The notes beneath the pieces were generated by a model. The model did no database searches, was not told the DNA's origin, and saw only the letters and a list, made by a program, of their open reading frames with translations. Source: a phage. From it: DNA of 64,000 bases. The stretch lies in sequence record PV730302.1. One strand, written 5' to 3'. Both the position numbers and the translations under genes were made by a program. Below, in pieces: positions 1 to 19,915 of this stretch (positions are counted from its first letter, which is position 1; each line of letters opens with the position of its first letter).

Positions 1-413
1 CGCAGAGCAGCCAGACGAGAACCTTTAACACCATATTTAGAAGCTTGCTTACGGACGTACCCTAAATAGGCTTTCATGTTGGTTGTATAGAACCGAGAAC
101 GATTGTCTTGGATAAATTTCCATACATCAGGTAAATCAGATTTAACCACCAGTTCAGGTGGAGTGTGGAGCATATCCAGAGCAACGGTTTCGCCTTCAGC
201 CGCCAGTTTAAAGAAATATTTCAGGCTATAAAGCTCGTGGTCAACATCATCTTTAGTGTTTTTGGAAGCAGTGTTATTCGTATTCAGGTTGGTATGGTTC
301 ATAGCCGTACCTAACAGAATATCACGCGGATGTGGAACAAAGATTTCTTTAAAATCAACATCAGATTCTGGAGTACTTGTTCCATAAAGGTGGCTACCGA
401 AGTAGCCTTTCAT
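1..413 (-). CDS. Pol-beta-type nucleotidyltransferase-like protein (N-terminal part; C-terminus lies beyond window start)
   Basis: Own translation of the minus strand (not in ORF track): MKGYFGSHLYGTSTPESDVDF... fits the GS-x(9-13)-DxD nucleotidyltransferase motif; ATG at 411-413. Confidence 0.5.
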   Translation of the reverse strand, partial: MKGYFGSHLYGTSTPESDVDFKEIFVPHPRDILLGTAMNHTNLNTNNTASKNTKDDVDHELYSLKYFFKLAAEGETVALDMLHTPPELVVKSDLPDVWKFIQDNRSRFYTTNMKAYLGYVRKQASKYGVKGSRLAAL

Positions 414-421
414 AACTGTTC

Positions 422-880
422 TCATTCTTTGTCCTCGAAGTGGATTACCGGACAGACCTTAGATTTACGAGCTTTAATGTATTGAATAACGATATTTTCT
501 TTAGTTTCTCGGCCTTCACGCTCAGCTTGAATACGTTGCCATTCCTTTTCTTCTCTACGGGCATCATACCATGCGTGTAAATTCATCGCACCGAATGCCA
601 AACCAATGGATAGCGCAATAATAAGAGCTATTGCAACCAATCCTAAAACAAACCCTAGACTCAACAGAACAGGGGTACTTAATACAAAGAAATGCTCTAA
701 TACACCAACACCTGCAACAGTTAATCCAAAAAGCGTACTACCTGCAACAACAGCACAAGCAAAACAAGCCCAAACCATTTTCCAGAAGTAAGCACATAAA
801 GAGTGCGGTCGAGAATGACTGTCATAAAAACGGTCATGAAGTTTAGCGTGCCAAGAGTTTGCATTGATAATCATAATCAT
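422..880 (-). CDS. small membrane protein (hypothetical)
   Basis: ORF track 152 aa; long hydrophobic segments consistent with 2-3 TM helices. Confidence 0.5.
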   Translation of the reverse strand: MIMIINANSWHAKLHDRFYDSHSRPHSLCAYFWKMVWACFACAVVAGSTLFGLTVAGVGVLEHFFVLSTPVLLSLGFVLGLVAIALIIALSIGLAFGAMNLHAWYDARREEKEWQRIQAEREGRETKENIVIQYIKARKSKVCPVIHFEDKE

Positions 881-890
881 AATATTTTCC

Positions 891-1451
891 TTAAGAGTTC
901 ATAGTTGGGATAACAGAGTTCAGATAAGAGACTAAAACTTTTAGTTCGTCTTTAGTAAATACCACTTCACTTTCACCATCGTGTCTTTGGGTCAAGGATA
1001 ACAAATCACGGCCCTGATGTTGATACACGGTTAATTCAGTATCATAATTCAGTTCTTCTTCATCACCTTCAAAGGTTTCACTAGAACGAATCACGGCATC
1101 TTGGCCAGGGACTTTCCATTCAACTTCCGGCTTGCATTCTTCCTGGAACAGTTTGAAAATACAATCAAAGAATTTATCAGAATCGCTGATGCTCAGACAT
1201 TCCCCGTCTGTTTCCAAATTAAACCCGTTGTCATGGTTATAAATCTGGGCCCACATATCATCGTTAATATCAAATACACCTCTAAAACTACCATTAAGAT
1301 ATTCGTGTTTATCCAAAACCTTTAAATCGTAAAGTGGTTTGATATCTTGGATAGTCAGTACGATTTTATCGTCTTCTTGTGAAAGCACAATCGCATTATC
1401 AACTACTTCAGCGGTCAGGTCACCAAACAACCCAGATGTTTCAATAATCAT
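891..1451 (-). CDS. hypothetical acidic protein
   Basis: ORF track 186 aa; tightly packed in minus-strand early operon. Confidence 0.5.
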   Translation of the reverse strand: MIIETSGLFGDLTAEVVDNAIVLSQEDDKIVLTIQDIKPLYDLKVLDKHEYLNGSFRGVFDINDDMWAQIYNHDNGFNLETDGECLSISDSDKFFDCIFKLFQEECKPEVEWKVPGQDAVIRSSETFEGDEEELNYDTELTVYQHQGRDLLSLTQRHDGESEVVFTKDELKVLVSYLNSVIPTMNS

Positions 1452-1461
1452 TTTCCGTTCC

Positions 1462-1644
1462 TCATTTCACATTTTGTTTAATAAAATTTAACAACTCATT
1501 AAGAGCTTTATCTTCTTCTTTGGAAAGCCTAGTACAATCATCAACCGAGTAATGGTTGCAAAATGCTGTTTCGAATCTAGCAACTGTACCTGCATAGGCC
1601 TCGATAAGCTCTTCAAGCTTTAAGTGCTTTTCTTTAGTTTTCAT
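1462..1644 (-). CDS. hypothetical small protein
   Basis: ORF track 60 aa; fits gene packing. Confidence 0.35.
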   Translation of the reverse strand: MKTKEKHLKLEELIEAYAGTVARFETAFCNHYSVDDCTRLSKEEDKALNELLNFIKQNVK

Positions 1645-1647
1645 AAA

Positions 1648-1932
1648 TCACCGGTTATGTTTTAAAATACTATAAAGCTCTTCAACTTGGCTTGCATCCA
1701 GATAAATGACCTCGTCATCTTGTTCCAGAACAATCCCACCTTTAATGAGGTTCCATTCCACCACTTCAACAGTCATATCATCACCGGAACCGGCTAATGT
1801 TTCTGGTTCTAAAACGATAACGCCATTTTCGGAATTACCACTCGGGTCATATAACATTACAGTTTCCTCGCTAACCGTGAAAAGAATAAACCAATTAAAA
1901 CAGGCCCTACAACCATTGTTAACCAAGCCCAA
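1648..1932 (-). CDS. hypothetical protein
   Basis: ORF track 94 aa. Confidence 0.45.
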   Translation of the reverse strand: MGLVNNGCRACFNWFILFTVSEETVMLYDPSGNSENGVIVLEPETLAGSGDDMTVEVVEWNLIKGGIVLEQDDEVIYLDASQVEELYSILKHNR

Positions 1933-1977
1933 GGTTCAAGATAGTAAATCATCTTCATGCTCCTATGCCACCAGCCA

Positions 1978-2160
1978 TTAGGCTTTCAATTCTTCTAAAT
2001 AATCAACCAAAGCCTGTTTTGATTTAGCCAAATCTCGTTTACACCGTTCTATTCCGGAATATGAATAACCTTCACACATCTCAACCGCAAGGTCGTTAGA
2101 ATCTCTTTCAATTTCAATAGCTAATTTAAGAATTTTTGCACACTGTTCAGCAGTTAACAT
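1978..2160 (-). CDS. hypothetical small protein
   Basis: ORF track 60 aa. Confidence 0.35.
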   Translation of the reverse strand: MLTAEQCAKILKLAIEIERDSNDLAVEMCEGYSYSGIERCKRDLAKSKQALVDYLEELKA

Positions 2161-2164
2161 ATCA

Positions 2165-2401
2165 TCACCAATATTTGTTAATGTTAGAAATCAATTCCTG
2201 GACCTGGGTAGTCTTCAGCTTACACCCACAACCCTTTAATGTATCTTTAAGGAGCCATGGCTCCTTGAGCTCGTCCTTTTCTAGACGAATTCTGTATCCT
2301 CGATAATCGGCGAAGATGCTTCGGTCGTCGAATATCTTAATCTCAAGGAGGCGGTTATTGATTTCATATTCTAATGAAACCGTAGTACTTGTAAGTTTCA
2401 T
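2165..2401 (-). CDS. hypothetical protein
   Basis: ORF track 78 aa; early promoter cassette immediately upstream (2419-2458); SD GGAG before ATG. Confidence 0.5.
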   Translation of the reverse strand: MKLTSTTVSLEYEINNRLLEIKIFDDRSIFADYRGYRIRLEKDELKEPWLLKDTLKGCGCKLKTTQVQELISNINKYW

Positions 2402-2418
2402 ACTGTTCTCCTCATTAG

Positions 2419-2458
2419 TTGATAAGTCTATAGTATCATGTTCCTAGAGGATGTAAAC
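2419..2458 (-). promoter_or_regulatory. early promoter/stem-loop cassette (core TTGATAAGTCTATAGTATCA)
   Basis: minus sense GTTTAC-N17-TACTAT, SD GAGGAG, ATG at 2401. Confidence 0.6.
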
Positions 2459-2498
2459 ACCTAAACGAAAAAAGGTCCCACCGAAGTGAGACCTTTGA

Positions 2499-2882
2499 TT
2501 ATTCTAACGTCAGCAAATACTTAGTCTGGTAAAAGACGCCAGTGATATCGTCCAAAGTCGACTGGATGGCCTTGGGAAGGGTATCATAGATTTTATCAGA
2601 TGCTTTAAGAAGCTCGTCAAGGAAATCTACAGGGTCCTTAGGCAAGTCTGAAGCAGACGGTAATGATGCTTTATATTCTTTGCCACTGAATCCAAGATAT
2701 TGCTCACTAAATTGGTCCAATGGGCCTTGAACTTCTACATAATAGAAGTCATACGCTTTGTGTCTTGCATAGCTTTTGGTTTCTAAATGGGCTGACTTAA
2801 AATAGGCTAAAGAAACCAGTAGCCAACCAATATAAGAATCCACTTCAGACCCTCGACCGGGTACGAAATCATTGAACTTCAT
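2499..2882 (-). CDS. hypothetical protein
   Basis: ORF track 127 aa. Confidence 0.5.
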   Translation of the reverse strand: MKFNDFVPGRGSEVDSYIGWLLVSLAYFKSAHLETKSYARHKAYDFYYVEVQGPLDQFSEQYLGFSGKEYKASLPSASDLPKDPVDFLDELLKASDKIYDTLPKAIQSTLDDITGVFYQTKYLLTLE

Positions 2883-3162
2883 CTTCCACCTTCATTAGTT
2901 TTACATAACGCTCTCCGATGGCACGACCTTCAATTGAGCACGCTTCTATAGTCCGACAACTTGACATCTTCCAAGAAGCCGTAACATAGGCCCAATAGTC
3001 TTCAGAGGCCTTTACGCTGGGTCTACTCATTTGTGCATAAACAGGCATCGCACTACTAGCAAATGCATCCATCAATTTATCGTTGGTGTTATTTGCTAGT
3101 GAAACTGTAGGGCTTAAACATCCCGCCATAAGGATACAAGCCGCTGTACGGAAAATATCCAT
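2869..3162 (-). CDS. hypothetical protein, possible signal peptide or lipoprotein
   Basis: ORF track 97 aa; N-terminal hydrophobic stretch ending ...LMAGC. Confidence 0.4.
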   Translation of the reverse strand: MDIFRTAACILMAGCLSPTVSLANNTNDKLMDAFASSAMPVYAQMSRPSVKASEDYWAYVTASWKMSSCRTIEACSIEGRAIGERYVKLMKVEDEVQ

Positions 3163-3540: not shown

Positions 3541-4113
3541 TCAACTCGTTATTTCTATCCAGTGCTTCCTGCACAATGACACGTAAGAATCGTTGCCACC
3601 TATAGAAACTTGGGCTCCGTCCTTAATTGCAATACCATCTTGGATACGAGCCGTCATAGTAGCTTTACGGCCGCAATGGCACACACCTTTGTACTCAACG
3701 AGTTTATCTGCTGTAGCGAGTAATTCAGCAGAGCCAGGAAACAGTTTACCCTGAAAATCAGTTCTTAGCCCATAGCACATAACTGGAACATTATAATTGT
3801 CTACTATCTTTGCCAGTTGTTTTATCTGTGCAGGTTCTAAGAACTGTGCTTCATCCACAAATACACAGTGGATATCTTTTTGAGATTCAGCCCAACGATA
3901 GAACTCGTATAGGTCCATATCCGGAGTCACGGCATTAGCCTCTTGACTAATCCCTATACGAGACGAAATGCTATGGCTTGATTCTCTATTGTCTATCGCA
4001 GGCTTTAAAAGGAGTACGCCCATACCGCGTTCTTTGTAGTTATGAGCCGCTGTTAGCAATGAAGCGGTCTTCCCAGAATTCATCGCCGCATAGTGAAAAT
4101 AAAGTTGAGCCAT
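3541..4113 (-). CDS. tk: thymidine kinase
   Basis: 190 aa; P-loop MNSGKTASLL, C-terminal Cys cluster CHCGRKA...LCRKH; size matches T4 Tk. Confidence 0.9.
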   Translation of the reverse strand: MAQLYFHYAAMNSGKTASLLTAAHNYKERGMGVLLLKPAIDNRESSHSISSRIGISQEANAVTPDMDLYEFYRWAESQKDIHCVFVDEAQFLEPAQIKQLAKIVDNYNVPVMCYGLRTDFQGKLFPGSAELLATADKLVEYKGVCHCGRKATMTARIQDGIAIKDGAQVSIGGNDSYVSLCRKHWIEITS

Positions 4114-11164: not shown

Positions 11165-11748
11165 TTACGGCATTCCTTAATAAAAGAGTTTAATGTATTT
11201 TTCTTAGTGATATCGTCATATACCTTTTTAACTTTAGAAATACGAAAAGGTACTTCGATAACAGAGGTCCATAAAAATGATGCGATAAGACCCAAGATAG
11301 CAGCAGACATCGCTGAAGCGAATACACAAATAGGCAGGTCATTATCTGTTGTCAGGAAAAACCATAGGAGTGGGAAAAATAATATACCCATCCAAACATA
11401 GAATCTAGAACTCACCAATTTGTCGTATTCATCACTCCATGCACGGAAGCCGTATTTTTTGCTATAACAAATCAATGGGTCTGGAGTCTGTTCTTTATGT
11501 GGTTCCGCTTGCCAGCCGTTTACGATATAGCCCATTTTATATTCCTCAATTAAAAGCTGTTTCATTTCGGCAGTACAACCTGACCAATCTATTGTACTGG
11601 CTGAAATTCCTTCATCACCGTCATCGATATTTCGCCAGGACTTTTTAATAATCATAGTCTCACCACTTGGGATAATAATTCCAGCATTTTCCGACCGACG
11701 GATGAAGTTTGTATCAATACCCATACAACCAGGTTCATAAAGGGCCAT
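11161..11748 (-). CDS. membrane protein with C-terminal ...NSFIKECRK motif
   Basis: 195 aa; two hydrophobic helices; C-terminus paralogous to ORFs at 15802-16155 and 16148-16684. Confidence 0.5.
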   Translation of the reverse strand: MALYEPGCMGIDTNFIRRSENAGIIIPSGETMIIKKSWRNIDDGDEGISASTIDWSGCTAEMKQLLIEEYKMGYIVNGWQAEPHKEQTPDPLICYSKKYGFRAWSDEYDKLVSSRFYVWMGILFFPLLWFFLTTDNDLPICVFASAMSAAILGLIASFLWTSVIEVPFRISKVKKVYDDITKKNTLNSFIKECRK

Positions 11749-12437
11749 TACCAGCCCTCCATAGGGAATTCCAGATATACTTGAGCATTAACGCGGATTT
11801 CATTTGTAATCTTTTTAACACGGTCTGTATTACGAGACACACGACCAAACCAGCGCCACCCATTACTTACTGCACGAGAACCTGTATGCCATGTCTGCCA
11901 ATCAAACTGGAGCAACGTGCGGTCAGGAGCATCCCACTTGGTTAATTCATTGGACTCAATTTTTTCCAGAACTTCTTTATGCCACTGGCGATAGATAAGT
12001 TCGCCTTCAGGAATCTGACTGAACTGTGCAGTTCCGGTTGCAAAATGAGTAGGACACACATCAGCATTAACAAGACCAAGAATATGTTCAGAATGGTATC
12101 GAGGATTATCATAATCAGGTTGCCCTGCGGTAATAAAGTGTTGACCCACCGGAATATCCGGGCGTGGTACATCATCATGGTGGAAGCCTGGAATTGCAGG
12201 GTACCAGCCAGGCATTAACATGTGTACACGGGAATCAAATACAATATCAGGGCCACATTGCCAATCTTCAGGCAGGTTTTCAATAAAGCTACGAGTAATA
12301 GGACCACCGTGTTTATGAGCAAAATAAGCATCGCAATTAAAGAACATAGGCTCATTTTTAATCATATCATTACTGATATCTTGAGCAAAACCACCGACTG
12401 CACGAGCTTGAGAATTAAAAGTTTTCGGGCCGTTCAT
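11748..12437 (-). CDS. hypothetical protein (His/Asp-rich, possible metal-dependent enzyme)
   Basis: 229 aa ORF; GFHHDDVPRPD and HSEH motifs. Confidence 0.5.
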   Translation of the reverse strand: MNGPKTFNSQARAVGGFAQDISNDMIKNEPMFFNCDAYFAHKHGGPITRSFIENLPEDWQCGPDIVFDSRVHMLMPGWYPAIPGFHHDDVPRPDIPVGQHFITAGQPDYDNPRYHSEHILGLVNADVCPTHFATGTAQFSQIPEGELIYRQWHKEVLEKIESNELTKWDAPDRTLLQFDWQTWHTGSRAVSNGWRWFGRVSRNTDRVKKITNEIRVNAQVYLEFPMEGW

Positions 12438-12451
12438 AATATTTTCCTCAC

Positions 12452-12666
12452 TTACTTTTTGTTGAAAAAGTACATTTTACCTTTAGGGGATAAGGATACA
12501 CGAAGTGCGTTACCAATACCAACTGAACATTTAACCAGGTCAGCAGATTTCAATTCACCAAATGCTTGACGAAGGTCACCGTCACGAGTGTTAACCATCA
12601 GGCATTTAGCACCAGCTGCACGAACTTCGTTTAACATGTTGATTGCTTGGTTAGAAAGTTTCATTT
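12452..12666 (-). CDS. hypothetical protein
   Basis: start moved to MKLSNQ (SD GGAG 6 nt upstream); early promoter cassette directly upstream. Confidence 0.5.
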
Positions 12667-12690
12667 TATTCTCCATTTCACTCTGTTGTT

Positions 12691-12730
12691 TTGATAGGTC
12701 TATAGTATCACACCTATAGACCTTGTACAC
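12691..12730 (-). promoter_or_regulatory. early promoter/stem-loop cassette (core TTGATAGGTCTATAGTATCA; -35 GTGTAC)
   Basis: inverted repeat GGTCTATAGG/CCTATAGACC; upstream of ORF 12452-12666. Confidence 0.6.
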
Positions 12731-12742
12731 TGTTTTGTGTAA

Positions 12743-13702
12743 TTATTTTTCGAAAGGACGAATTAAATGTTGGTTATCTTGGAAACGCTTGATGTAGTCG
12801 TTTTCACCTAAAGTCTTGTACATATTAACCACCGCTTGGTAGTTTTCCCAGGCGTACTCGCGGAACCAACCTGAAGTGATTGAGGTGCACACTTTCTCAA
12901 GAGCCATATAGAAACTTAATGATGGCGAAATATTAAAGTCATTAGGAACCTGTGAACGTTCTAGTGCCAGGACACAAGTTTCTTCATACACACCGGCCAA
13001 TTTAATAGCTTCAGGCAAAGCTTCAAACTTCTCACGAGAGGTCATGACTTCAGAACCATCCTTCATATAAAAGGTATATGCAGGGCGGCCTGCCAATGCT
13101 ACTGCTTCGTGGATGGAGTCATGGTCCAGCGTATAAATGGTATCATTAAAGAATGATGATTTGTTAACGTCTAATTTAGGGTGAGAATAGCTCAACGTTT
13201 CTTTTTGACGTTGCAGCATAATTTCCTGGAGTTCTTCGTTCAGGGTCACGCCTTTATTACGAAGGTATTTGATGTGGGACATAGTTTTCAAGAAGAACGG
13301 ATTATTCTTAAGGAAACGATGAGAGGTTTTGATAGCCAGACAGATATCAGGGGTTGCCCAATAGAAACCAGTAAGACGGTCCTTTTTAATATGATTTTCA
13401 GCATATTTCAGGAGACGATAGCTTGAAGTGAAATCTTCGTCTTGAAGCTCACCGGTAATTTCTCGTACGTTAGTCAGAGCACGAACGATATAAGCTTCAA
13501 AATAGGTTTCTTTACCATTATGCATACATTTGAAAGCCTGGACATCAGGATTGTCAACGTGTACATGGGCACCAAACATCCGAGCTTTAAAGTGATTCCA
13601 TGAGCCTTGGTCGGCAATGAAATCCCAATCAGAATTTTCGATATGCTTACTTTCAATCAGACCAGCGTGGTGCAGTGCACGAGAACCAATAACTAACATC
13701 AT
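12743..13702 (-). CDS. hypothetical 319-aa protein, possible nucleotidyltransferase fold
   Basis: N-terminus IGSRALHH...SDWDF loosely resembles a GS...DxD motif (spacing atypical). Confidence 0.5.
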   Translation of the reverse strand: MMLVIGSRALHHAGLIESKHIENSDWDFIADQGSWNHFKARMFGAHVHVDNPDVQAFKCMHNGKETYFEAYIVRALTNVREITGELQDEDFTSSYRLLKYAENHIKKDRLTGFYWATPDICLAIKTSHRFLKNNPFFLKTMSHIKYLRNKGVTLNEELQEIMLQRQKETLSYSHPKLDVNKSSFFNDTIYTLDHDSIHEAVALAGRPAYTFYMKDGSEVMTSREKFEALPEAIKLAGVYEETCVLALERSQVPNDFNISPSLSFYMALEKVCTSITSGWFREYAWENYQAVVNMYKTLGENDYIKRFQDNQHLIRPFEK

Positions 13703-13715
13703 AATATTTTCCTCA

Positions 13716-13883
13716 TTAGTAGAGACGAGTTACTTCATATTTACCTAGTTCAGATTTTTTTGCTTCAATACGCGTGGCGGCGAGATTAGCGGCCTCTAGT
13801 GAAGAAAATTGAACCACTTGTGAAGTATTCTGCCTTACGCCACCTTGTGGGTGAGTAACAAAAACAATAAGAACATTATACAT
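13716..13883 (-). CDS. hypothetical small protein
   Basis: internal start MYNVLIV with SD GAGGAAAA upstream. Confidence 0.35.
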   Translation of the reverse strand: MYNVLIVFVTHPQGGVRQNTSQVVQFSSLEAANLAATRIEAKKSELGKYEVTRLY

Positions 13884-13902
13884 AATATTTTCCTCAGATA
13901 AC

Positions 13903-14142
13903 TTAAATTTCGGCAACGTAAGTGTTATGCAATTCCCACATATCATCAGAATTGCTCTTAATGATAGGGATTATCTCATTAGAGATTTCTTCAGCATAAG
14001 GGTCATTGATACAGTGGGCATCTTCAAAACGAACACCGTAATCAGACTTCTTATAGGCAAAGCCATAAATCTTTTTAAACTTGGCACGGGTAATGCGTAC
14101 CGGTTCATTAGACTTATCAGACAACGGAGAGTAATACCACAT
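13903..14142 (-). CDS. hypothetical protein
   Basis: ORF track 79 aa. Confidence 0.4.
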   Translation of the reverse strand: MWYYSPLSDKSNEPVRITRAKFKKIYGFAYKKSDYGVRFEDAHCINDPYAEEISNEIIPIIKSNSDDMWELHNTYVAEI

Positions 14143-14185
14143 ATGTTCTCCTCATGTTTGTGTAGGGTAATAGTAACACGTATTT

Positions 14186-14536
14186 TTAGAGTTGTACATC
14201 ACTTCTGCAATATTCTAAAAATAATTTATCGTTGTCTACCGTATCCCAACGACGCCAAGATGGATTCCAGACCAAAGCGTTGTCACCACAATCATTGAGC
14301 TTAAAATGGTCGTAGTACATAGCTATACGTCTAGTTTCGTCACCAGAGAACCCCAGTATAGGCTCGCCGTGGGTGTGATACATATGATGGTGCATTGAGA
14401 GGTCGCATTTGTAAAACATCTCACGTTTACCACGAACGAACAAGAAGGCTTGCCCATTCATATAGAATTCTTTATCTGTTTTCAAAAGATATTTGAATAC
14501 TGAATCTTTATGCATAAGTCCTCCTACCACATCCAT
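14186..14536 (-). CDS. hypothetical protein (His-rich HHHMYHTH segment)
   Basis: ORF track 116 aa. Confidence 0.45.
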   Translation of the reverse strand: MDVVGGLMHKDSVFKYLLKTDKEFYMNGQAFLFVRGKREMFYKCDLSMHHHMYHTHGEPILGFSGDETRRIAMYYDHFKLNDCGDNALVWNPSWRRWDTVDNDKLFLEYCRSDVQL

Positions 14537-14545
14537 GTGGTTAAA

Positions 14546-14773
14546 TTATTTTCCTAACGAAACACGAGTAGGTTTTTTACCAAAATAGTCTTCGTAAGAA
14601 CCATCTAAACGGCCTGCTTTAGACCGACAATACGAATCATACTTTTTGTAATAAGTCATCTCGGTATTATAACGTGGGTGTCTATCAGCCATAATAATAC
14701 TTAACGGCCAACCTTTGGCATAATCGCGAAGACCATTTATTTTACGAATGTATCTTTTCTTTAATTTTAGCAT
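14546..14773 (-). CDS. hypothetical basic protein
   Basis: ORF track 75 aa. Confidence 0.4.
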   Translation of the reverse strand: MLKLKKRYIRKINGLRDYAKGWPLSIIMADRHPRYNTEMTYYKKYDSYCRSKAGRLDGSYEDYFGKKPTRVSLGK

Positions 14774-14991
14774 GAGCTCGGATACCAGATTTTACCATCG
14801 GCCTGAGCAACGAAGGTGCGACCAGCTTCTTCACCATAACAAGAGCTATTCAGCCAATCTTCGAGACGAACTTCACCGTCATAATCATCGAGCTCAACAC
14901 CGAAATCCTGGGCAGAAGCCATATCTTTTACTTTCTTATACAGTGCAGCCAGTTCAAGAGCAGCTTTTTCTAATTCATTAATATCAGACAT
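14767..14991 (-). CDS. C-terminal-Cys family small protein, member 4 (ends WYPSSC)
   Basis: start set at MSDINELEK; shares N-terminal helix, central aromatic/Gly motif and terminal W-x-SS-x-C with three upstream paralogs. Confidence 0.55.
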   Translation of the reverse strand: MSDINELEKAALELAALYKKVKDMASAQDFGVELDDYDGEVRLEDWLNSSCYGEEAGRTFVAQADGKIWYPSSC

Positions 14992-15001
14992 TTTTATTTC
15001 C

Positions 15002-15214
15002 TTAGCAAGACATAGAAGAAGTAAACCAGAAACCATCACCATCAGGAATGCCGTAATCATCACGGACCCATTCATAATCATCATATTCCGGGTTCTTTGG
15101 AGAAATGTATTGTCCACGACCAGAAACATGGAACTCTTCACCCGTTTCGTCAGCCACAGACTGGCCTTTACGTACTAATTCACGGATTTGGTTTTCAATT
15201 TCATCAATAGTCAT
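15002..15214 (-). CDS. C-terminal-Cys family small protein, member 3 (ends WFTSSMSC)
   Basis: ORF track 70 aa; paralog. Confidence 0.55.
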   Translation of the reverse strand: MTIDEIENQIRELVRKGQSVADETGEEFHVSGRGQYISPKNPEYDDYEWVRDDYGIPDGDGFWFTSSMSC

Positions 15215-15223
15215 TTTATTTCC

Positions 15224-15505
15224 TTAACATTCAGAAGAAGAGGACACCCAACCACCATTTTCTAGGCTGGTAGTGTAATCATGTTGGTTTACAATAGCGT
15301 ACTGAGCTTCACCGTATTCTTCCCAGTGGGCAAGGTCGGCTTTCAAGGCGCCAGGAGAATAATAGTCACCGCCCATACCGCGAGCAGGGTATATATTAAA
15401 ATGAGTCTCATATTTGTTTGCAATTTCCTCGGCACGACGAATAGCTTTATGGATATCATTTACTGCTTCAGCCAATTCTTTATTTTTATGGTAATCATTC
15501 ATCAT
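15224..15505 (-). CDS. C-terminal-Cys family small protein, member 2 (ends GWVSSSSEC)
   Basis: ORF track 93 aa; paralog. Confidence 0.55.
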   Translation of the reverse strand: MMNDYHKNKELAEAVNDIHKAIRRAEEIANKYETHFNIYPARGMGGDYYSPGALKADLAHWEEYGEAQYAIVNQHDYTTSLENGGWVSSSSEC

Positions 15506-15514
15506 AGCGTTTCC

Positions 15515-15805
15515 TTAGCACATTGCCGAAGAGGAGATCCAAGCACCAACTGTAACGACGCCATTTTCAACTTCACCACCGTTGTTTTCAATTTCATCTT
15601 TAAACCACTGGGAGCATTCATAACCGACAGGATAATATGTACGGCCTGAACCATAATCACCGGTACCGAATTGGATACCATACTTATCGGCAATAGCTTC
15701 ACATTCATGTTCGATGGTATTCACTTTATTCAGAAGAGCATAGATAGCCTTTTCTGCAGATTTCTCGTCATTGTGTTCCGGGATTTCAATTTCAATTTTA
15801 TTCAT
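15515..15805 (-). CDS. C-terminal-Cys family small protein, member 1 (ends AWISSSAMC)
   Basis: ORF track 96 aa; paralog. Confidence 0.55.
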   Translation of the reverse strand: MNKIEIEIPEHNDEKSAEKAIYALLNKVNTIEHECEAIADKYGIQFGTGDYGSGRTYYPVGYECSQWFKDEIENNGGEVENGVVTVGAWISSSAMC

Positions 15806-16155
15806 GATTTACATTCCTTAATAAAGGTTTCAAGGTCATTACGTTTAGTTTGTTTTACATACTCATTATAATTAGCCATAGCTAAAGCATATCTCTTTTT
15901 ACGTGGCTTGTTTATTTTATTAGTTTGGGCAATATCAAAGACCCATGGGATAAAAAATCCTATTAAAGCCGGAACCCAAATCCATGCAAGGCTCATATCT
16001 TCAAACGGATGGCGAGGCATACCATTAATAATCCCACCGACAAGAAATCCAATTATCCCTGCAGTCATACTAGTAGCAATGCCGAGGAATAAGGAAATAG
16101 CTATATCATAATCTGCTAATGCGTAACCAGGGTCGGTTTTACTAGGCTTATGCAT
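15802..16155 (-). CDS. membrane protein with C-terminal ...ETFIKECKS motif
   Basis: start set at MHKPSK (SD AAGAGG upstream); TM helices; C-terminus paralogous to 11161-11748. Confidence 0.5.
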   Translation of the reverse strand: MHKPSKTDPGYALADYDIAISLFLGIATSMTAGIIGFLVGGIINGMPRHPFEDMSLAWIWVPALIGFFIPWVFDIAQTNKINKPRKKRYALAMANYNEYVKQTKRNDLETFIKECKS

Positions 16156-16684
16156 TTTGAACCTCTTTAGCGTATTCGCGACATTCAGCAATAAAACGAT
16201 TAAGCTTACGTTGTTGTTTACGACTTTCTAATGTGTACTCATTAGCCAAAATAATAAGCTCATCTTTATCGTAATTTTTAATATCAGAGTAAGATGGGCG
16301 ACGGTCAACCATTCCAAATACATCACCATTTTCTAAAGCTACATAACATACTAAATGGTAATCATCGTCTGCCATATTAAGAAGCACACAATCAGCGCTC
16401 TCGTTTAAAGAATATACCGAATAACGTAGTCCAGCGAATTCCACTCGTTGAATAGCCAGATTTACGTCAATAATTTCCAAAGCATCTTCAAAAGAAAGGT
16501 CTTCAGCTAAAGCAAAAATAAAAGGTAATTTGGTAGTATCGCCACGGCTAGATGTTCTGCTTAAGAAATCGTTTGAATAGCCTAGGTCTTGGCGAATTCT
16601 ATAAAGAACTGAATTAGTTTCATGTGAAAGACCACTATGCTTAAACCAATCAATATTTGATATCAGGTCGTCATATAAACTCAT
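16148..16684 (-). CDS. hypothetical protein with C-terminal ...LNRFIAECREY motif
   Basis: ORF track 178 aa. Confidence 0.5.
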   Translation of the reverse strand: MSLYDDLISNIDWFKHSGLSHETNSVLYRIRQDLGYSNDFLSRTSSRGDTTKLPFIFALAEDLSFEDALEIIDVNLAIQRVEFAGLRYSVYSLNESADCVLLNMADDDYHLVCYVALENGDVFGMVDRRPSYSDIKNYDKDELIILANEYTLESRKQQRKLNRFIAECREYAKEVQNA

Positions 16685-19758: not shown

Positions 19759-19833
19759 TGGTATCCCGCCCTGGGATCGAACCAGGACCGCAAACTTAGA
19801 AGGATCGTATGCTATCCATTACACCAGCGGGAC
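19759..19833 (-). tRNA. tRNA-Arg (anticodon TCT), CCA encoded
   Basis: manual fold of minus strand: 7-bp acceptor stem, T-loop TTCGATC, anticodon loop CTTCTAA. Confidence 0.85.
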
Positions 19834-19838
19834 ATAGT

Positions 19839-19915
19839 TGGTGACCCGGACCAGATTTGAACTGGTAACCTTTCCCTTATGAGGGGACTGCTTCTAACCA
19901 TTGAGCTACAGGGCC
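19839..19915 (-). tRNA. tRNA with CAT anticodon (elongator Met or lysidine-type Ile), CCA encoded
   Basis: manual fold: acceptor GGCCCTG, T-arm ACCAG-TTCAAAT-CTGGT, anticodon loop CTCATAA; 5 nt from tRNA-Arg. Confidence 0.8.

Follow-up and report, generated by a model that had tools for sequence, protein, structure and literature searches.

The 64,000-nucleotide stretch of phage DNA considered here (sequence record PV730302.1, in the following the window) stems from a Dhakavirus, a JS98-like member of the T4-type Straboviridae. Its early-gene region harbors two open reading frames (ORFs) that are assigned to the Pol-beta superfamily of nucleotidyltransferases (NTases) by their motifs and predicted folds. 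The first is truncated by the left window edge and encodes NrdC.11, a member of the RlaP family. The second encodes a two-domain enzyme of 319 amino acids, which may form a functional module with small proteins that are encoded upstream of it and carry a serine-rich, cysteine-terminated tail. This account of both ORFs is the best explanation overall, with a probability of roughly 0.6. The window-edge ORF is a known, already annotated gene with a recently proposed function and is not novel. Specialist interest is confined to the linkage between the second NTase and the Cys-tailed proteins, which is drawn from comparative genomics and appears not to have been described before.

The 319-amino-acid protein takes on a two-domain architecture, in which an N-terminal NTase core is followed by a larger helical domain. 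Its features are as follows:

12743..13702, minus strand: 319-amino-acid two-domain NTase (RB69 ORF134c / JS98 orf122 family; phrog_2141), start MMLVIGSRAL...NSDWDF
13400..13699, minus strand: predicted NTase core, Pfam DUF7277, residues 2–101, 96.1 bits
13682–13687 (G6-S7), 13628–13630 (D25), 13622–13624 (D27), and 13496–13498 (E69), minus strand: predicted catalytic residues of the core
12788..13345, minus strand: C-terminal helical domain, Pfam DUF7275, residues 120–305, 262.4 bits

The gathering cut-off of both Pfam models is 27 bits. The two domains occur in this order in the ORF, and all 41 aligned family members match both. A GAGGA sequence lies 6 nt upstream of the ATG. PHROG 2141 is listed with "unknown function," the JS98 annotation records only a similarity to RB69 ORF134c, and a few GenBank records already label homologs of the enzyme "nucleotidyltransferase." The searched literature holds no mention of DUF7275, DUF7277, PF23940, PF23942, phrog_899, or phrog_2141, and neither of the two NTases is matched by NCBIfam or PADLOC.

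The first-pass annotation had described the GS...DWDF motif of this ORF as a looser version of the NTase signature, and the motif has proven to be real. G6, S7, A9, D25, D27, and E69 are invariant across 41 diverse homologs. For a broader view, 90 loci (80 viral loci, nine loci from phage records, and the window) were divided into 22 lineage groups by an enzyme identity of at least 60%. G6, S7, D25, and D27 are kept in the representatives of all 22 groups, short forms included, and position 69 is a glutamate or aspartate in 20 of them. The AlphaFold model is confident, with a predicted local distance difference test (pLDDT) score of 91.4 and a predicted template modeling (pTM) score of 0.85. 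It places a strand (residues 2–5) before the GS turn and the following helix (6–12), the DWDF motif (25–28) on a strand spanning residues 26–31, and E69 on a strand spanning residues 64–73. The hG[GS] ... [DE]h[DE]h ... h[DE]h motifs on their canonical strand and helix elements and the NTase fold both agree with the Pol-beta superfamily. Since none of the known NTase Pfam models is matched by any of the 41 members (scan at E ≤ 5), the assignment rests on motifs and fold, and on these the ORF is a Pol-beta-superfamily NTase. It is independent of NrdC.11; a common origin of the two NTases was rejected by hhalign of the family alignments (probability 0.1%). Metal-dependent nucleotidyl transfer from a nucleoside triphosphate (NTP) by the predicted G6-S7/D25/D27/E69 site is well supported.

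In the model, the DUF7277 core shows a small fold resembling those of MenT, ANT(2'')-Ia, and LnuA and is fused to DUF7275, which is unique. Conservation is much higher in this C-terminal domain than in the catalytic core. Every lineage retains K125, H128, K139, H194, D195, H198, E240, E241, E248, and R249, and the structure search returned no convincing structural relative of the domain. By analogy with the C-terminal motifs III and IV of DUF1814 enzymes, it is probably DUF7275 that forms the active site's acceptor side. The family comprises 2037 detectable members and is held by 734 phage records (tblastn), which include T4-like phages of many hosts, Phapecoctavirus, rV5-like phages, Otagovirus, jumbo phages, KVP40, and phages of Streptomyces and Gordonia. 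A predicted catalytic fold and active site can now be assigned to a widespread DUF7277/DUF7275 pair that had no known function.

When all ORFs of the 90 loci were clustered, one group of neighbors stood out, namely small acidic proteins of 60–150 amino acids that belong to PHROG 899 ("unknown") and have no Pfam match and no PDB relative. Every copy has a helix at its N-terminus and a tail of the form G-x-W-x-S-S-S-x-x-Cys-stop, and usually a YG.GG.Y motif as well. In the window, four paralogs with tails of the type W-x-S-S-(S)-x-x-Cys-stop form a tandem array on the minus strand (14767–15805):

15515..15805, minus strand: Cys-tailed copy 1, 96 amino acids, ends ...GAWISSSAMC (phrog_899 E 2.8e-23; family hidden Markov model (HMM) E 2.8e-23; no Pfam match)
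15224..15505, minus strand: Cys-tailed copy 2, 93 amino acids, ends ...GGWVSSSSEC (phrog_899 E 2.4e-20; family HMM E 3.1e-21)
15002..15214, minus strand: Cys-tailed copy 3, 70 amino acids, ends ...FWFTSSMSC (phrog_899 E 1.3e-13; family HMM E 2.7e-17)
14767..14991, minus strand: Cys-tailed copy 4, 74 amino acids from an internal ATG, ends ...KIWYPSSC (phrog_899 E 4.3e-10)

Copy 4 is the most divergent; it falls under the threshold of the family HMM, and its tail was found by a regular expression.

The linkage between these genes and the enzyme gene is strict. The small-protein HMM detects 173 copies in 78 of the 90 loci and in 16 of the 22 lineage groups, with one to six copies per locus. All 173 are encoded on the strand of the enzyme and 171 lie upstream of it, and the gap between the enzyme gene and the nearest small-protein gene has a median of 561 bp and a maximum of 1622 bp. 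An HMM scan of the 64-kb window found no member of the family outside the array. The complete 98-kb genome of phiPsa374 carries four copies and 50 kb of a Phapecoctavirus two, in both cases directly upstream of the enzyme gene and nowhere else. An unbiased profile search with the four window copies as query retrieved 149 relatives among 1.84 billion representative proteins; 138 of these carry the tail motif and end in its cysteine, and in another seven the cysteine is followed by one extra residue. The syntenic 28 kb of T4 contain neither a member of the enzyme family nor true small proteins. T4 Tk.1 gave a weak match to the small-protein HMM and was rejected as a family member due to the absence of the tail.

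Divergent short forms of 252–297 amino acids (other groups span about 290–410) are encoded by Streptomyces phage Sham (L008), KVP40 (L009), Gordonia phage Engineer (L010), and Vibrio phage K406 (L011). They keep GS/DxD and the core of K125, H128, K139, H194-D195, H198, E240-E241, and E248-R249. They lack R129, R165, H174, C272, S277, and R281, all of which are kept in every group with small proteins. No Cys-tailed small protein is found near these four enzymes.

Several observations weigh against this picture. Four unrelated small ORFs are situated between the small-protein genes and the enzyme gene in the window, and within 8 kb of the enzyme no small protein was detected in two long-form groups (L060 and L080). 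T4-like loci with a common synteny are numerous in the set and thus do not count as independent observations. For these last two reasons the linkage evidence is strong but not proof. At the level of the enzyme, the missing match to a known NTase Pfam model counts against the reading, as does the distance of the fold match to MenT (8% identity over about 146 aligned residues). Moreover, tRNA or antibiotics, and not proteins, are the substrates of its nearest structural relatives. With this in mind, comparative genomics tips the balance slightly toward the enzyme and the small proteins forming one functional module, and we propose that the small proteins are substrates or regulators of the NTase.

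How such a module would work is more tentative. The mechanism that we favor, although we regard it as somewhat doubtful, is that the enzyme nucleotidylylates the Ser-rich, Cys-terminated tail. It is favored because one enzyme accompanied by several divergent proteins with an invariant tail fits a pattern of one modifier and many substrates. The enzyme would recognize the tail common to the small proteins and transfer a nucleotide, for example adenosine monophosphate (AMP), onto a tail serine hydroxyl or the terminal cysteine, and the variable bodies would hold different functions. A precedent is MntA, a Pol-beta NTase that (oligo)adenylylates HepT, a small protein encoded together with it (PMC7641770). 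MntA–HepT serves as a working analogy, as in both cases a Pol-beta NTase has a small protein encoded beside it. The systems differ in that MntA belongs to the minimal NTases and its target HepT is a HEPN RNase that is modified on a tyrosine, whereas here the 319-amino-acid enzyme carries a novel domain and is accompanied by small non-HEPN proteins that occur in multiple copies and end in the Ser-rich, Cys-terminated tail. The cognate partner that the first-pass annotation suggested looking for has a candidate in the Cys-tailed proteins for the 319-amino-acid ORF, though not one of the HEPN type, and NrdC.11 has no conserved partner at all.

A more specific version, which is rather unlikely in all its parts, describes a hitherto unreported phage protein-modification module in which a MenT-like NTase would nucleotidylylate the tails of diversifying small proteins, which would thereby mature to active effectors, for example in anti-defense. 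In a variant of this chemistry the serine–nucleotide adduct could act as leaving group for a thioether ring between Ser(-3) and the terminal Cys, similar to the chemistry of ribosomally synthesized and post-translationally modified peptides. What the comparison of loci exposes is a strict gene linkage between an NTase and small proteins with an invariant tail. If the enzyme does modify these proteins, the pair would constitute a new system of post-translational modification encoded by phages, and it would open the way to an entire family of functionally uncharacterized small early proteins.

The most serious competitor for the 319-amino-acid enzyme, although unlikely, is a tRNA 3′-end NTase of the MenT type. 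It would either block the charging of host tRNAs, and thus contribute to host shut-off, or rebuild damaged acceptor ends, and the small proteins would be inhibitors or regulators like the 68-amino-acid MenA1 for MenT1. MenT1, MenT3 (TglT), and MenT4 are indeed the best structural matches, MenT toxins add nucleotides to the acceptor ends of tRNAs, and MenT1 is blocked by a short protein that is encoded upstream of it. In addition, an annotated RNA ligase gene is located two genes upstream of the enzyme in Streptomyces phage Sham, and a tRNA cluster lies 1.2 kb downstream in Gordonia phage Engineer. RNA-repair genes are, however, not recurrent neighbors of the enzyme, and both of these phages encode short forms, which have no small protein nearby. 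The sequence identity to the three MenT proteins (DUF1814, AbiEii) is only 8–11%, and the Pfam scan of the 41 members returned only DUF7275, DUF7277, and scattered chance matches, without any signal of DUF1814. In comparison with MenT, DUF7275 has about double the size and an invariant set of K, H, D, E, and R residues of its own. An antitoxin of the AbiEi/COG5340 type is missing, and the short proteins encoded upstream belong to the unrelated, multi-copy Cys-tailed family, of which up to six divergent copies with an invariant tail fit a set of substrates better than an antitoxin. Finally, MenT is a chromosomal toxin–antitoxin locus, whereas the 319-amino-acid NTase is encoded by lytic phages.

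Even less probable is that the enzyme modifies a small molecule, be it antibiotic-like, a nucleotide, or related to nicotinamide adenine dinucleotide (NAD), and that the small proteins are merely syntenic. ANT(2'')-Ia and LnuA, whose folds resemble the core, are proteins of about 160–180 amino acids that act on aminoglycosides or lincosamides; the 319-amino-acid NTase has neither a sequence relation to them nor a resistance context. For NAD, Nampt-like and Prs-like genes adjoin the enzyme gene in Vibrio phage K406 (L011) and Acinetobacter phage AB2I3 (L012). A link to NAD salvage was nevertheless rejected, as such genes are found near the enzyme in only 4–6 of the 22 groups and lie about 70 kb away from it in phiPsa374, in which the small-protein genes are adjacent. 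Due to this distance, the NAD genes look like a co-location in accessory or anti-defense regions and not like a pathway link. Compared with any metabolic gene, the small proteins are linked to the enzyme far more strongly, in 16 of 22 groups and with a constant strand and order.

Other neighbors of the 319-amino-acid enzyme are less regular. A tblastn comparison of the window with three distant phages found no neighbor that is conserved by sequence, and a scan of 12300–16400 for promoters and terminators did not exceed chance and placed no minus-strand terminator between the small-protein genes and that of the enzyme. An ORF at 11748–12437 (minus strand), two genes downstream of the enzyme, encodes a 229-amino-acid protein of the phrog_1843 / RB69 ORF132c family; it has an HHDD stretch and no Pfam match, and distant phages do not conserve it as a neighbor of the NTase. 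Nampt-like and Prs-like genes of the NAD-reconstitution type, macro-domain genes, and SLOG/DprA-like genes occur within 8 kb of the enzyme in 4–6 of the 22 groups (L011, L012, L042, and L090–L092). Annotated Sir2 genes lie a few kb from the enzyme in two inspected phage loci (L006 and L009).

The window-edge NTase is encoded on the minus strand, which the first-pass annotation did not state. Window positions 1–413 translate into an open frame 137 codons long, which starts MKGYFGSHLYGTSTPESDVDF and continues past the left edge. Together with the gene next to it, the locus comprises the following features:

1..425, minus strand: 141 N-terminal codons (total about 336) of the nrdC.11 ortholog, a Pol-beta NTase assigned to the RlaP family; the gene continues past the left edge
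354..398, minus strand: predicted catalytic signature G10-S11 ... D22-x-D24 of NrdC.11 (FGSHLYGTSTPESDVDF), from the homolog alignment
422..880, minus strand: 152-amino-acid predicted membrane protein directly upstream of nrdC.11, from the ORF list; phrog_944 "membrane protein"

The true start of nrdC.11 is most likely the ATG at 425–423 (MRTVMKGYFGS), since a GAGGA sequence is located 8 nt upstream and this ATG overlaps with the TGA of the membrane-protein ORF in an ATGA junction (422–425). Most of the full-length homologs (336 amino acids) start with MRTV or MKTV. Residues of NrdC.11 are numbered from this ATG.

Over its 141 amino acids the fragment is 100% identical to the 336-amino-acid protein P0156, and it shares 86.5% identity with NrdC.11 of T4. 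The Pfam model RlaP (PF10127, gathering cut-off 23 bits) scores 39.1 bits with the fragment alone and 41.1 bits with the full-length protein. PHROG 388 ("nucleotidyltransferase") is matched with an E-value of 6e-133, and "nucleotidyltransferase" is also the RefSeq product of nrdC.11 in IME08 and T4. All of 23 homologs keep G10, S11, D24, D84, and a KYG.KGSR block, and D22, D60, and D62 are almost invariant among them. The third carboxylate is probably D62 (240–242), which lies on the predicted strand 61–67. The sequence agrees with the Pol-beta superfamily pattern, in which about 10 residues separate hG[GS] from [DE]h[DE]h on the next strand, and with an α/β NTase core. Because of the invariant residues and the RlaP score over the cut-off, the motif is a true Pol-beta NTase motif and not a chance occurrence. 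The motif named by the first-pass annotation is hence confirmed, and the suggested Pfam check returned an NTase family and no different fold.

NrdC.11 is in this way a member of the RlaP family of Pol-beta NTases by sequence. It has the FGSxxYG...SDxD motif of the family as well as its architecture of an NTase and a C-terminal helical domain, of which the C-terminal part lies beyond the window. The AlphaFold 2 (AF2) model of P0156 shows strands and helices up to about residue 130, followed by a helical C-terminal half. As NrdC.11 has its own helical domain of the substrate-binding type, it does not qualify as the "minimal" NTase it had been taken for. Minimal nucleotidyltransferases (MNTs) are single-domain proteins of about 100–150 amino acids, in contrast to the 336 and 319 amino acids of the two window proteins, each with a large C-terminal domain.

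The function of RlaP enzymes has recently been addressed in a preprint (PMC12776372). Two enzymes from Pseudomonas add one or two nucleoside monophosphates (NMPs) to the 3′-OH of RNA with a preference for damaged RNAs, and the crystal structure features a cleft that the N-terminal NTase forms with a helical domain at the C-terminus. The authors propose that RlaP restores nucleotides that "smart" ribotoxins, RloC among them, have removed, so that tRNAs become functional once religated, and they list T4 NrdC.11 as RlaP cluster 5. The same repair role was predicted earlier for phage RlaPs in a review of jumbo phages, which reports genome-level co-distribution and not adjacency (PMC7824862). By analogy with the Pseudomonas homologs, NrdC.11 probably belongs to the activity class of RlaP-type RNA 3′-end NTases. 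With NTPs as donors, it would extend RNA 3′-OH ends by one or two nucleotides. tRNAs that are cut and trimmed by host anticodon nucleases of the RloC type would be refilled before the RNA-repair enzymes of the phage reseal them. NrdC.11 would thus be a counter-defense helper and not a component of a toxin–antitoxin system. Such a counter-defense role through RNA repair is plausible, which retains one part of the first-pass proposal (anti-defense) and leaves the other (toxin–antitoxin) unsupported. The RlaP assignment gives NrdC.11 a testable role, which is the refilling of nucleotides lost to "smart" anticodon nucleases before tRNA religation.

The assignment of this role has its counterarguments. 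Only 141 of the 336 codons are inside the window, and NrdC.11 covers positions 25–142 of the 249 positions of the RlaP profile, which is the N-terminal half. The only assayed enzymes, PfRlaP and PaRlaP, belong to cluster 1a, whereas T4 NrdC.11 belongs to cluster 5 (PMC12776372). The assayed enzymes are also encoded inside RtcB/RtcA operons, in contrast to the phage nrdC.11, which has neither an adjacent RNA ligase nor a conserved neighbor; the family owes its name to genes for RNA ligase or RNA repair in the neighborhood. In a neighbor test, all ORFs within 6 kb of nrdC.11 were clustered at 82 loci in 22 lineage groups with a threshold of at least three groups; it returned no conserved partner, no HEPN gene, and no RNA ligase. 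Both nrdC.10 and the upstream membrane gene stayed under the three-group threshold.

The closest solved structure to NrdC.11 is HalB of the Hailong system (PDB 9dbh), a synthase of DNA oligomers, which likewise speaks against a role in RNA repair. It is very improbable, however, that NrdC.11 is a HalB-like template-independent oligonucleotide synthase instead of an RNA-repair enzyme. Such an enzyme could, for instance, produce oligo-dA that keeps the HalA channel of a host Hailong system closed, possibly in concert with the translationally coupled upstream membrane protein. The support for this reading is weak. HalB shares 14% identity with NrdC.11 and belongs to a different sequence family. 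It has 217 amino acids, uses a tyrosine of its own as primer, and synthesizes the poly-dA by which the HalA channel is gated, whereas NrdC.11 has 336 amino acids and a further helical domain. The membrane ORF does overlap the start of nrdC.11, yet neither protein is matched by PADLOC, and the pairing is absent in T4, which has mobD at the position of the membrane ORF. The layout of the membrane ORF at 422–880 next to a protein with a HalB-like fold superficially resembles that of Hailong; the pairing is not conserved.

The idea that one or both ORFs encode an MNT that serves a neighboring HEPN-type toxin as antitoxin or partner, for which the GS...DxD motif common to MNT proteins and a weak, sub-threshold match to NTP_transf_2 (16.1 bits at a cut-off of 21) could be cited, is effectively refuted by the two-domain build of the 336- and 319-amino-acid proteins, by a RlaP match that passes its own threshold, and by flanking ORFs that contain no HEPN or toxin family according to Pfam, PHROG, and PADLOC.

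The annotation of NrdC.11 in databases is not uniform. In NCBI records and UniRef, many orthologs are labeled "thioredoxin" and one "HNH homing endonuclease"; by Pfam, the mislabeled orthologs are RlaP nucleotidyltransferases. The label "thioredoxin" has apparently spread from the name of the neighboring nrdC gene. Downstream of nrdC.11 and just left of the window, nrdC.10 (L002:3801–4781) encodes a protein of 326 amino acids with weak matches to P-loop/STAND-like NTPases and to HTH_37, each under the Pfam cut-off. It adjoins nrdC.11 in T4 and Dhakavirus, and it does not reach three of the 22 lineage groups as a neighbor.

The placement of both genes follows the common order of T4-like genomes. 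Bases 1–3000 of the window share 96% DNA identity with Escherichia phage 04086 and 91–93% with IME08, Bp7, and other Dhakavirus genomes. In the records of IME08 and T4 the annotated order is nrdC.10 - nrdC.11 - (membrane protein or mobD) - mobD.1 ... rI - tk ... denV - ipIII - e - nudE, on a single strand throughout. The window starts inside nrdC.11 and continues with tk (3541–4113), denV, e, and nudE toward the tRNA genes. Two tRNA genes are present in the 64 kb, namely tRNA-Arg TCT and tRNA-Met CAT (19759–19915, minus strand), compared with eight at the syntenic position of T4.

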